DNA of 64,000 nucleotides, taken from the NCBI GenBank assembly GCA_964459325.1, contig CAYWKU010000014.1:15189-79188 (forward strand), read 5' to 3'. The position numbers and the translations under genes were made by a program. Shown here in pieces: positions 1,930 to 61,875 of this stretch. The notes beneath the pieces are model-generated. The model saw only the letters and a program-made list of their open reading frames with translations. It did not search any database and had not been told where the DNA came from. Source of the stretch: an uncultured bacterium (GTDB lineage: Bacteria > RBG-13-61-14 > CAYWKU01). Positions within the stretch are counted from its first letter, which is position 1. Each line of letters starts with the position of its first letter.

Positions 1930-2004
1930 TGTCGATATCATTATGATAATATTACGCCAAGGAGCGGGAAAAAGTCAAATAGCGCCTCGCTCTCTCGCAA
2001 CCCG

Positions 2005-2160
2005 GGACTCCCGGATAATGGGCCCGGCCTGTTTCTCACCTTGACCGCTCCCGGGGGTTAAAAAAACATGCTCGTCACCAAAAAGGTGATAGCCGGCCTC
2101 CGGTCTTTTTTCGCCCCCAGCCCCCCTGCGGTCAAGGTGAGCTACCCTTACGGGGAATAT
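2005..2160. repeat. ~155-nt structured palindromic element, copy A (ncRNA or non-autonomous mobile element)
   Basis: Perfect 14-bp IR CTCACCTTGACCGC (2035-2048) / GCGGTCAAGGTGAG (2128-2141), an outer stem and an inner TCACC-N5-GGTGA hairpin. Homologous to 61670-61831 in opposite orientation. Confidence 0.75.
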
Positions 2161-2256
2161 TTGAATCATTAAGCGGGAATCACGGAGGGTGGAACACTCG
2201 TTTGCCCGGACGTTATTTTCATTTCAGAATATATAATTGGCTTGTAGGTTCAAAAA

Positions 2257-4535: not shown

Positions 4536-4660
4536 CAGGGTGTTGAAAAATGCTATTTTTCGTAACGCCCGGACGGGCAAAAGGCGCCTTAATAAAATCA
4601 GCTACTTACAAGTGCCGCCAGGGATGGCGGCGTTACGTTTCTGACTTTTTCAACACCCTG
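4536..4660. mobile_element. MITE family 1, copy b (125 bp)
   Basis: TIR CAGGGTGTTGAAAAA (4536-4550 / 4646-4660), TTAG duplication (4532-4535, 4661-4664). Lies between convergent era and rpiB. Confidence 0.9.
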
Positions 4661-29707: not shown

Positions 29708-29876
29708 GGGTCTGCGACATAAATGTGGGGCAAACGGAACGGCGACGTCCTTCTCAGGCCGCACGGCTCGCCGGCAAGGGAAATGCCGCCGGGCCGGACG
29801 GCTCGTATGAGACGGCGGCGTTCCGAACCATACAACCGGTGGAAGTCCTAAAAACTCACTTTCATGTCGCAGGCCC
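29708..29876. mobile_element. MITE family 2 (169 bp) with 9-bp target duplication
   Basis: Imperfect TIR GGGTCTGCGACATAAA / TTTCATGTCGCAGGCCC; direct repeat GTTTGGAAA at 29699-29707 and 29877-29885. Confidence 0.85.
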
Positions 29877-41302: not shown

Positions 41303-43024
41303 ATGACAAAAATGACCCCGTCGGAAGCGCTGGTAGAAACCCTGGTCGCCGAAGGAGTTCAGACGGTGTTCGGTATCGTGGGCAGCGCATACATGGACGC
41401 CCTAGACCTTTTCCCCGCCGCAGGTATCCGGTTCGTAAGCACCGCCCACGAGCAAGCCGCGGCCCACGCGGCGGACGGTCTCGCAAGGGTAACGGGCAGG
41501 CCGCAAGTATGCATCGCCCAGAACGGCCCCGGGGCCGCCAACTTCGTCAGCGCCATTACCGCTGCTTACTGGGCACACTCACCGGTTGTGGCGATAACTC
41601 CCGAAACCGGGAGCGTGGGAATAGGCACCGGTGGTTTCCAGGAACTTGACCAGATGCCATGGTTCCAGGCGTGCACCAAGTACCAGGTGCGCGTCAACAG
41701 GCCGGAGCGCATGGCCGAATTCGCTCGCAGATGTTTCTACGTCGCCAAAACCGAATGCGGCCCCACCCAACTCAATATCCCCCGGGATTACTTTTACGGG
41801 GAAATAGATACCGACATTTTCAAAACCCCCGAAATTCAACACGGCGCCGGCGCCGAGGAACAGCTCGACAAGGCCGCGAAAATGCTCCTGGATGCCAAAT
41901 ATCCGGTAATCCTGGCCGGTGGCGGCGTTGCCCAGTCAAACGCCACGGAAGAAACCGAGTCGCTCTGCGAATACATGACCGCACCCGTGGTTAACACGTA
42001 CCTCCATAACGACAGCTTCCCCACCGGCCACGACCTGAGCGTGGGGCCCATCGGGTACTGCGGCTCCAAGGCGGCCATGAGAACGCTCGCAAAGGCAGAC
42101 GTTGTACTGACGCTGGGAACCCGATTGGGGCCGTTCGGCACCCTGCCGCAGTATGACATGAATTACTTTCCCGATAACGCCAAAATTGTCCAGGTGGACA
42201 TCGACCACCGGGTAATCGGCCTGAGCAAAAAGGTGGATTTGGGAATAGTCGCCGATGCCCGTCAGTTCGCCGGCAGGTTGCTGGAAAGAATCAAAGCCAA
42301 AGACCCGGCGCGAAAACCCGACCGGGAGAAACTCGAAGAAATTCAAAAGGAAAAGGACACCTGGGCCGAGGAGCTCAACGGCTGGTCGAGCTCGAACGCA
42401 AAACCCATGCACCCCCGTCGATTGCTCAAGGAACTGTCATCGGCGGTGCCGAAAGGCTCCCCCGTAACAACCGACGTGGGCAACACCTGCTCCATGTGTA
42501 ACGCCTACTTCGGCGCCACCGGCCCGGGACAGTTTCTTGCTCCTCTCAGTTGGGGCAACTGCGGAATCGCTTACGGAGTGGCAATGGGCGCAAAGATGGG
42601 CAACCCCTCAAAGCCGGTCTTTGCCCTCCAGGGCGACGGAGCTTACGGCATCAGCGGCCTGAGCGAAGTAATGACCGCCGTCAGGGAAGAAATACCGGTG
42701 ATAGCGGTGGTGTTCAATAACAACCAGTGGGGCGCGGAAAAGAAGAACCAGATAGACTACTACGACGACAGATTCGTCGGCGCCAACCTGCAGAATCCCG
42801 ACTTCGCACAACTGGCCCGGGACATGGGGGCGGAAGGATACCGCGTTGAAGAACCGGACCAGGTCGGGGACGCCGTGCAGGCGGCCTTGAAGTCCGGAAA
42901 ACCCGCCGTCATAGACGCAATAATCGACGGCTCCGCCGAAGTGCTGGCCGAACCCTTCCGGCGGGACGCGCTCAAAAAACCCGTGCGTTATCTGGACAAA
43001 TATAAACACCTGACCGTAAAGTAA
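41303..43024 (+). CDS. xsc: Sulfoacetaldehyde acetyltransferase (ThDP enzyme)
   Basis: MTPSEALVE, FGIVGSAYMD, HEQ, QNGPG, AAYWAH, GGFQE, LNIPRDYFYG, GDGAYG, NNQWGAEKKNQ...FVG: Xsc-specific motifs rather than AlsS/IlvB. Confidence 0.9.
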   Translation: MTKMTPSEALVETLVAEGVQTVFGIVGSAYMDALDLFPAAGIRFVSTAHEQAAAHAADGLARVTGRPQVCIAQNGPGAANFVSAITAAYWAHSPVVAITPETGSVGIGTGGFQELDQMPWFQACTKYQVRVNRPERMAEFARRCFYVAKTECGPTQLNIPRDYFYGEIDTDIFKTPEIQHGAGAEEQLDKAAKMLLDAKYPVILAGGGVAQSNATEETESLCEYMTAPVVNTYLHNDSFPTGHDLSVGPIGYCGSKAAMRTLAKADVVLTLGTRLGPFGTLPQYDMNYFPDNAKIVQVDIDHRVIGLSKKVDLGIVADARQFAGRLLERIKAKDPARKPDREKLEEIQKEKDTWAEELNGWSSSNAKPMHPRRLLKELSSAVPKGSPVTTDVGNTCSMCNAYFGATGPGQFLAPLSWGNCGIAYGVAMGAKMGNPSKPVFALQGDGAYGISGLSEVMTAVREEIPVIAVVFNNNQWGAEKKNQIDYYDDRFVGANLQNPDFAQLARDMGAEGYRVEEPDQVGDAVQAALKSGKPAVIDAIIDGSAEVLAEPFRRDALKKPVRYLDKYKHLTVK

Positions 43025-43078
43025 TTGTCTATAATTGAAGCCCGGGGAGCGGTCAGGGTGTGAAATAACGGAGCCTGA

Positions 43079-61580: not shown

Positions 61581-61610
61581 TTTTTCAATACACCGAATAA
61601 TATTCAGCCA

Positions 61611-61649
61611 GGATTCCCCATCAAGGGTAGCCTCATTATCCAGGAATCC
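61611..61649. repeat. Minimal shell version (copy C) of the structured element
   Basis: GGATTCCCCATCAAGGGTAGC-CTCATTATCCAGGAATCC joins the two outer arms of copies A and B with no inner part. Confidence 0.6.
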
Positions 61650-61669
61650 CGGAATAATTCAACCTCCCC

Positions 61670-61831
61670 AAGATTTCTTATTAAGGGTAGCGCGCCTTGA
61701 CCGCAGGGCCACATATGCCGGGTGAAGAATCTGAGGGCGGCCATCACCTTCCGGGTGACGACCGTATTTTCATGTAACCCCCGGGAGCAGTCAAGGTGTG
61801 AAACGAATCCGCCTCCTTATTCGGGAATCTT
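61670..61831. repeat. ~160-nt structured palindromic element, copy B (ncRNA or non-autonomous mobile element)
   Basis: IR CGCGCCTTGACCGC (61691-61704) / GCAGTCAAGGTGTG (61787-61800), outer stem and inner TCACC-N5-GGTGA hairpin; homologous to the reverse complement of 2005-2160. Confidence 0.75.
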
Positions 61832-61846
61832 GGTCAATCTACCCGT

Positions 61847-61875
61847 TTGACATCCCTTGAGTTTGCGCGGATAAT
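61847..61875 (+). promoter_or_regulatory. sigma70-type promoter
   Basis: TTGACA-17 bp-GATAAT, 10 bp before ATG 61886. Confidence 0.55.

Follow-up and report, generated by a model that had tools for sequence, protein, structure and literature searches.

The 64,000-nt stretch of DNA analyzed here (the window) carries, beside tolQ and a DUF89 gene, two related segments that a preliminary description, made from the sequence alone, had presented as an unnamed structured element of about 155 nt in two diverged copies 60 kb apart, and as a candidate for either a new non-coding RNA or a mobile RNA family. This raises the question of what kind of element it is and what its rod-like fold reflects. We found that it is very probably a miniature inverted-repeat transposable element (MITE) with IS1380-type terminal inverted repeats (TIRs), presumably mobilized in trans by the transposase of that insertion sequence (IS).

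Two copies of the element in the window

The two stretches are clearly homologous: 1990-2180, read in reverse complement, can be aligned with 61650-61850 at 80% column identity. All conserved blocks listed previously were found, namely AAGGGTAGC, CCTTGACCGCAGGG, GGCyATCACCTT..GGTGACGA, TAACCCCCGGGAGCrGTCAAGGTG.GAAAC and the ATTAyCGGGA arm. The rod fold of both copies was also reproduced, and both strands of the consensus were predicted to form a long rod (-75 and -71 kcal/mol; z = -5.5 and -4.8, respectively, against dinucleotide shuffles). In agreement with the proposal that both neighboring genes have their own sigma70 promoters, strong sigma70-like sites (11/12 matches) are located between each window copy and the neighboring gene. 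An element does lie at 2005-2160 and 61670-61831, but its true ends are farther out (Table 1); similarly, the copies are real but they are not two, since about 90 are present genome-wide.

Copy A belongs to a subfamily (subfamily A) in which the left end consists of 22 nt identical to end 1 of the IS described below, with the old left repeat just inside; the renewed end of copy A reads CCGTGATTCCCGCTTAATGATT, and its old left TIR is retained internally. No recognizable target-site duplication remains around this copy in the exact adjacent-word test. The first 11 nt of the left TIR of copy B are the same as the IS termini found at contig ends. Copy B was scored as lacking a duplication in the exact-word test because its duplication is imperfect.

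Besides these copies, the window contains a core-less shell flanked by AATAAT(A)TTCA and AATAATTCA, and a weak remnant in which the P1 arms surround a shortened interior. The shell is best read, from its sequence, as a probable deletion derivative. The opposite possibility, a precursor that received the core, was rejected: there is no duplication around the core inside full copies, and the breakpoints differ in the only other reduced copy of the genome.

Table 1. Positions in the window of the two copies, their parts and other repeats (P1 is the internal 14-bp inverted repeat; arms of copy A are given in the minus-strand reading)
Feature	Position	Strand	Basis
Copy B, full-length main-family member (probable MITE), 166 nt	61668-61833	+	nhmmer, 142.6 bits, model positions 1-167
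Copy B, core	61685-61804	+	covariance model, 106.7 bits
Copy B, left TIR CCAAGATTTCTTATTAAGGGTAGC	61668-61691	+	alignment of 57 copies
Copy B, right TIR CTCCTTATTCGGGAATCTTGG	61813-61833	+	reverse complement CCAAGATTCCCGAATAAGGAG matches TIR CCTTGATTCCCGGATAAGGAG of a related full-length IS1380-family IS
Copy B, P1 5' arm CGCGCCTTGACCGC	61691-61704	+	pairs with 61787-61800
Copy B, P1 3' arm GCAGTCAAGGTGTG	61787-61800	+	P1 pairing analysis
Copy B, decayed target-site duplication, left TCAACCTCC, right TCAATCTACC	61659-61667; 61834-61843		read from sequence
Copy A, subfamily A member (probable MITE), 184 nt	2002-2185	-	alignment, IS-end comparison
Copy A, core	2031-2147	-	covariance model, 107.3 bits
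Copy A, P1 5' arm CTCACCTTGACCGC	2128-2141	-	P1 pairing analysis
Copy A, P1 3' arm GCGGTCAAGGTGAG	2035-2048	-	P1 pairing analysis
Core-less 45-nt shell, left TIR CCAGGATTCCCCATCAAGGGTAGC joined to right TIR CTCATTATCCAGGAATCCCGG	61608-61652	+	37/45 positions identical to joined TIR consensus
Weak remnant, P1 arms ACACCTGACCG and CGGTCAGGGTGTG	43000-43066	+	nhmmer partial match (C14:58217-58256); covariance model, 13.3 bits, E=0.094
Second MITE-like family, two copies	967-1113; 4536-4660
Third MITE-like element, 169 nt, TIR GGGyCTGCGACAT	29708-29876

A dispersed family with TIRs and target-site duplications

A BLAST search of the element's own genome, which comprises 3.8 Mb in 74 contigs, returned 43 matches. 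Searches of the kind suggested in the preliminary description extended the family further: iterated nhmmer revealed 93 non-overlapping matches (57 full and 36 partial), and a covariance model of the core (R1) detected 67-69 copies. The covariance model tells the strands apart (~107 vs 22 bits for the window copies), and therefore the element has a defined orientation, plus for copy B and minus for copy A.

Members of the family are 157-190 nt long and non-coding, and indels in homopolymer runs disrupt any reading frame between copies. They are bounded by TIRs of 20-24 nt (CCAAGATTCCC...). Alignment of the 57 full copies gave the consensus CCAAGATTCCCyGTTAAGGGTAGC for the left TIR and CTCCTTATCCGGGAATCTTGG for the right one; over the outermost 11 nt, one end is the inverted repeat of the other, and the pair CCAAGATTCCCyGTTAAGG ... 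CCTTATCCGGGAATCTTGG was used in the assignment to MITEs. The left TIR is followed by a 14-nt arm (CACACCyTGACCGC), a conserved block (AGGGyGGCTTATGG) and a variable interior of ~60 nt; then come the conserved CCGGGAG, the second arm (GCGGTCArGGTGTG), GAAAC, a short variable stretch and the right TIR.

Target-site duplications were sought as exact words abutting both ends, with left and right flanks taken from different copies as a control. Direct repeats of 6-12 nt were revealed in 23 of the 57 copies, against 1.9% in the mismatched-flank control (e.g., TATTCCATACC, TATTGAGTTT, TTATAGAATTAA, GTATGTTTCC, GGATTGAAAA). Older copies, including copy A, have lost their duplications.

Bacterial MITEs are under about 600 bp, non-coding, bounded by TIRs and target-site duplications, present in many dispersed copies and accompanied by an autonomous partner. 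The family described here has this size, lack of coding capacity, TIRs, duplications and copy number, and a partner with the same termini. Thus, the ~90 copies, the TIRs, the duplications and the termini shared with an IS point to a MITE family, and the earlier guess of a mobile family was right.

Nearly all copies in the genome are intergenic. A promoter with at least 10/12 matches was found within 130 nt downstream of 10 of the 57 copies and an outward-pointing promoter upstream of three of them, and a fixed position of the element relative to promoters was rejected on these counts. A tRNA/tmRNA scan over all copies gave no hits.

The partner insertion sequence

Twenty contig ends of the assembly stop 51-55 nt inside IS termini of two kinds, starting with CCAAGATTCCCGCTTAA or CCAAGCTTCCCGCTTTA; read farther, the termini are CCAAGATTCCCGCTTAACGAGTTGGCAATGC... 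or CCAAGCTTCCCGCTTTAGGTAAGTGAAAAAGC... Such breaks are the effect of a multi-copy insertion sequence on short-read assembly. The ten contig ends with end 1 pair uniquely with the ten with end 2 through common words of 7-9 nt in their flanks (14 nt in one case), and a second-best partner was found for none of the ten pairs. An extra pair of IS ends is located on contig C3, with 10 nt common to its flanks. As the flank words are the target duplications of the IS itself, ten contig joins can be predicted: C4/C41, C5/C6, C12/C38, C16/C39, C22/C18, C26/C24, C31/C51, C42/C55, C53/C26 and C70/C21. The insertion at C4/C41 sits within a core of the element. In total, the genome contains at least 12 copies of the partner IS.

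It should be mentioned that two IS ends of C3, at 108557 and 160590 and thus 52 kb from each other, have the flank word GTGAATTTGC in common; this points to either an inversion or a misjoin involving two IS copies.

The type of the IS was revealed by an internally deleted copy of 768 bp with both ends kept (C3:159823-160590). Its frameshifted frame corresponds to a transposase N-terminus and matches NF033539 (IS1380 family; E=4.8e-17, positions 2-141 of 419) as well as PF13701. Among 1.84 billion representative proteins scanned, the best full-length relative was a protein of 440 aa (P0004) with 48% identity, which scores 188 bits on NF033539 against the curated cut-off of 180. The IS encoding P0004 has the TIR CCTTGATTCCCGGATAAGGAG on both sides, and this sequence is nearly identical to the right end of the element studied here when that end is read in reverse complement. 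The interior of the partner is absent from the assembly, and it is from this fragment and its nearest full-length relative that the partner can be assigned to the IS1380 family.

The termini of the IS (20 contig ends and C3) have 11-22 nt in common with the ends of the element. Target duplications of the IS are 7-10 bp (one of 14 bp) and those of the element are 6-12 bp. Duplications of IS1380-family elements are usually given as 4-5 bp (ISfinder), and neither the IS nor the element has duplications of this length; this sets the pair (7-12 bp here) apart from what is usual in the family and counts against the assignment.

Taken together, these data allow us to propose a mechanism. The element would be a non-coding, non-autonomous DNA transposon of 165-190 bp bearing the TIRs of the resident IS1380-family IS, whose DDE transposase is likely to mobilize it in trans (the role of this particular transposase is inferred), and insertion would duplicate 7-12 bp of the target. 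The rod fold would then have two sources, pairing of the TIRs and the internal inverted repeat P1. Like other members of the IS1380 family (ISEcp1, ISPme1; PMC9330008), the partner matches NF033539 and PF13701 and has termini that start with CC. Elements of this family misrecognize their ends and mobilize neighboring DNA (PMC9330008), which offers a plausible route by which a MITE could acquire a foreign core and subfamily A its renewed left end.

Three further observations do not follow simply from the proposed MITE. No relationship was found between its core and the assembled IS parts; helix P1 shows higher conservation than the TIRs, which is unexpected of a purely decaying selfish element; and several old copies have no clear TIRs and are flanked by direct repeats of 15-30 nt that are unlike simple duplications.

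The old TIR-poor copies deserve a separate remark. Their direct repeats include the left junction, and three of them contain a TTGAC(A/G)/TTGAAG word. In four diverged copies (C4:98161-98313; C28:28595-28749; C28:19216-19378; C23:14637-14790) the flanking direct repeats are 15-22 nt long and cover the beginning of the left end; a TTGACA- or TTGAAG/TTGACG-type word occurs in two of these four. Such repeats are not simple target duplications.

Conservation of helix P1 and a possible RNA function

Over 61 distinct copies P1 is 95.9% paired, and 6 of its 14 pairs have changed on both sides, with compensatory variants such as CCTTGACC/GGTCAAGG, CCCTGACC/GGTCAGGG, TTAATCGG/CGATTAA and CTGAACGC/GCGTTCAG. 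Its covariation score was reached by none of 500 shuffles, and cells of the G.U type outnumber those of the A.C type 34 to 11; both statistics overstate independence because the copies are related to one another. Singleton counts per column are a poor, saturating measure of constraint, and nine close subfamily A copies were compared instead. Among them 3 substitutions have accumulated in 26 columns of P1 and 138 in the 186 columns of the whole element (permutation p ~1.5e-4), while the TIRs have 0.55-0.68 substitutions per column, so that P1 evolves about five times more slowly than the TIRs. Judging from these comparisons, P1 and the blocks GGGTAGC, AGGGyGGCTTATGG and CCGGGAG are under stronger constraint than the TIRs.

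Such a pattern is what one would expect if the core (GGGTAGC, P1, interior, CCGGGAG and the second P1 arm) were a functional structured RNA, cis-acting or small, that had been spread by the MITE; the functional strand would be plus, the orientation of copy B. The distribution of orientations agrees with this explanation as well: in co-directional intergenic regions 36 copies run with the genes and 13 against them. Other data speak against it. Apart from P1, the proposed helices are only 58-76% paired, and the interior between the P1 arms has no extra stability compared with dinucleotide shuffles (mean z of -0.25 for the plus and -0.78 for the minus strand). RNAalifold on MAFFT alignments recovered no more than pieces of a structure, owing to the variable interior, which is misaligned. 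The integrity of P1 is the same whether a copy lies sense or antisense to its neighbors, or between divergent or convergent genes. The strong promoter of the neighboring gene is downstream of both window copies, which places the element outside that 5' UTR. The excess of G.U-type cells comes from non-independent copies, no Rfam family corresponds to the core and no copies are present in relatives. Finally, the downstream genes have no common function (e.g., PanD, RuvB, HrcA, ThiF, PP2C, an aldolase, a response regulator), and a riboswitch or regulon was rejected since these are unrelated housekeeping genes. We therefore consider a structured RNA unlikely, though worth keeping in mind, and the earlier lead of a new ncRNA is not supported: covariation backs P1 alone, and the interior is as stable as shuffled sequence.

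Because the interior has no extra stability, P1 is intact in all contexts and promoters lie downstream, we read the constraint on P1 as acting at the level of the element. Most likely, although we hold this view loosely, it would belong to the element itself, for example as a DNA or single-strand hairpin or cruciform aiding synapsis or persistence; a host RNA function of P1 seems less likely. A related and rather doubtful possibility is that the MITE carries a cargo module under its own purifying selection, consisting of P1 with GGGTAGC, AGGGyGGCTTATGG and CCGGGAG. It would be a structured RNA or a single-strand hairpin to which some factor of the host or of the element binds. Such a module might serve as an insulator or as a signal for processing or stability, or it might give rise to a small RNA from the promoter-like site of the element.

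The site in question was observed on the minus strand of young copies (TTGACy-17-GAAAAT, 9/12 matches; e.g., 61794-61766 and 2092-2113) and is unconserved in older ones. In subfamily A copies it is followed by a small hairpin and a T-run, and a predicted minus-strand transcript of ~50 nt could start from it. No outward promoter was found in the element.

Comparison with REPINs, 6S RNA and IS200/IS605 ends

REP and REPIN elements reportedly go together with RAYT transposases. They are recognized by GTAG-tagged REP singlets and doublets that lack a duplication and by a RAYT gene flanked by REPs, and to our knowledge RAYT-type movement makes neither target-site duplications nor TIRs. The element described here resembles them as a dispersed intergenic hairpin repeat with a GTAG word beside the stem and compensatory changes in the stem. 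The core might accordingly have been a REPIN-like doublet (a GTAG-tagged palindrome) moved by a RAYT/IS200-type Y1 transposase and later wrapped in IS1380 ends: GGGTAGC, the most conserved block, has the GTAG tag just 5' of the stem, CACCCT-GACCGC-AGGGTG is able to form a small hairpin, the genome has four Y1_Tnp matches, and some copies are without clear TIRs. Against this, none of the Y1 transposase genes is within 5 kb of any copy, so that the element has no associated Y1 gene; free half-sites corresponding to singlet REPs are absent, the few outside matches being apparently due to chance or adjoining partial copies; the 3' arm ends in GAAAC rather than CTAC; and the element has TIRs and target-site duplications. 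This origin is largely refuted by these data, and we regard it as very improbable.

6S RNA is encoded by a single-copy gene matching the Rfam 6S models, while IS200/IS605 elements and HEARO/omega RNAs are without TIRs and duplications, have subterminal hairpins and are adjacent to a TnpA(Y1), TnpB or IscB gene. The size, the rod shape and the TTGAC/GTCAA words are what recalls a 6S-like RNA, or else an end or guide RNA (HEARO/omega RNA) of the IS200/IS605 type. Both can be practically dismissed: a family of ~90 dispersed copies is compatible with neither a 6S gene nor a nuclease-tied guide RNA, TIRs and target-site duplications are present, all Y1 transposase genes are more than 5 kb from every copy, and Rfam gave nothing relevant, 6S included, either at gathering thresholds over the whole window or at E up to 10 for both loci, in line with the initial impression that neither likeness was convincing.

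Distribution outside the genome

In all 12 other genomes of the phylum the element was absent (BLAST and the covariance model), and no ancestral single-copy core was found in these relatives. A search for the exact two-block pattern, which recovers 30 of the 57 copies of the genome itself, was extended to 185,579 species genomes, where all matches were due to chance, and to the JGI metagenomes, which yielded one true copy (L045). This is a subfamily A copy from another organism, at a different, unrelated site and with its own duplication, TGCGACA. Thus, in these searches the family was found only in its own genome and one metagenome contig and is restricted to this lineage. An exact-protein look-up for sister strains, as a source of empty sites, returned no record.

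It should be mentioned that the L045 copy is located (at about 800-1000) upstream of an opposite-strand gene that, by eye, may encode a CrcB-type fluoride channel.

Other repeats in the genome

Two more MITE-like repeats were observed in the window (Table 1). The second family is 125-150 nt long with perfect 15-nt TIRs (CAGGGTGTTGAAAAA ... TTTTTCAACACCCTG), and one of its copies is nested in an IS1380-type IS copy on C3 (about 108230-108440). In L045 the MITE studied here lies inside the GGGTCTGCGACAT end of an element of the third type, with the duplication TGCGACA; thus, the families nest into one another.

Local tandem cores with repeated spacers of 18-30 nt were found at C51:15087-15333, where the array runs into a stretch of N, and at C37:19502-19824. 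Some of the old copies without clear TIRs lie in these arrays, and unequal recombination could account for them.

Discussion

Several bacterial MITEs derived from or mobilized by ISs are known, including Correia elements of Neisseria, ERIC/IRU of enterobacteria, RUP of Streptococcus pneumoniae, Nezha and Chunjie. The element studied here shares with them its short, non-coding structure, TIRs, target-site duplications, many intergenic copies and long-hairpin fold, the existence of nested and deleted derivatives, and termini common with a partner IS of the same genome. It differs from them in that its sequence family and host lineage are new, the partner belongs to the IS1380 family, the interior does not come from the assembled parts of the IS, and an internal 14-bp helix is conserved above the TIRs. 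Thus, the sequence family is new, while its kind, a MITE with an IS partner, is well known.

The assignment to a repeat family removes a tempting false lead, that of a 6S-like or guide RNA. It also explains most assembly breaks of this MAG, with ten IS copies that can be bridged by their target duplications. An IS1380-type IS and its MITE with unusually long duplications are hereby described in a phylum from which only 13 species have been sequenced. If the doubtful cargo module did exist, an IS1380-type transposase would have planted it beside ~70 genes. An internal helix kept more strictly than the transposase-binding ends bears on the synapsis of short transposons or on how MITEs may turn regulatory.
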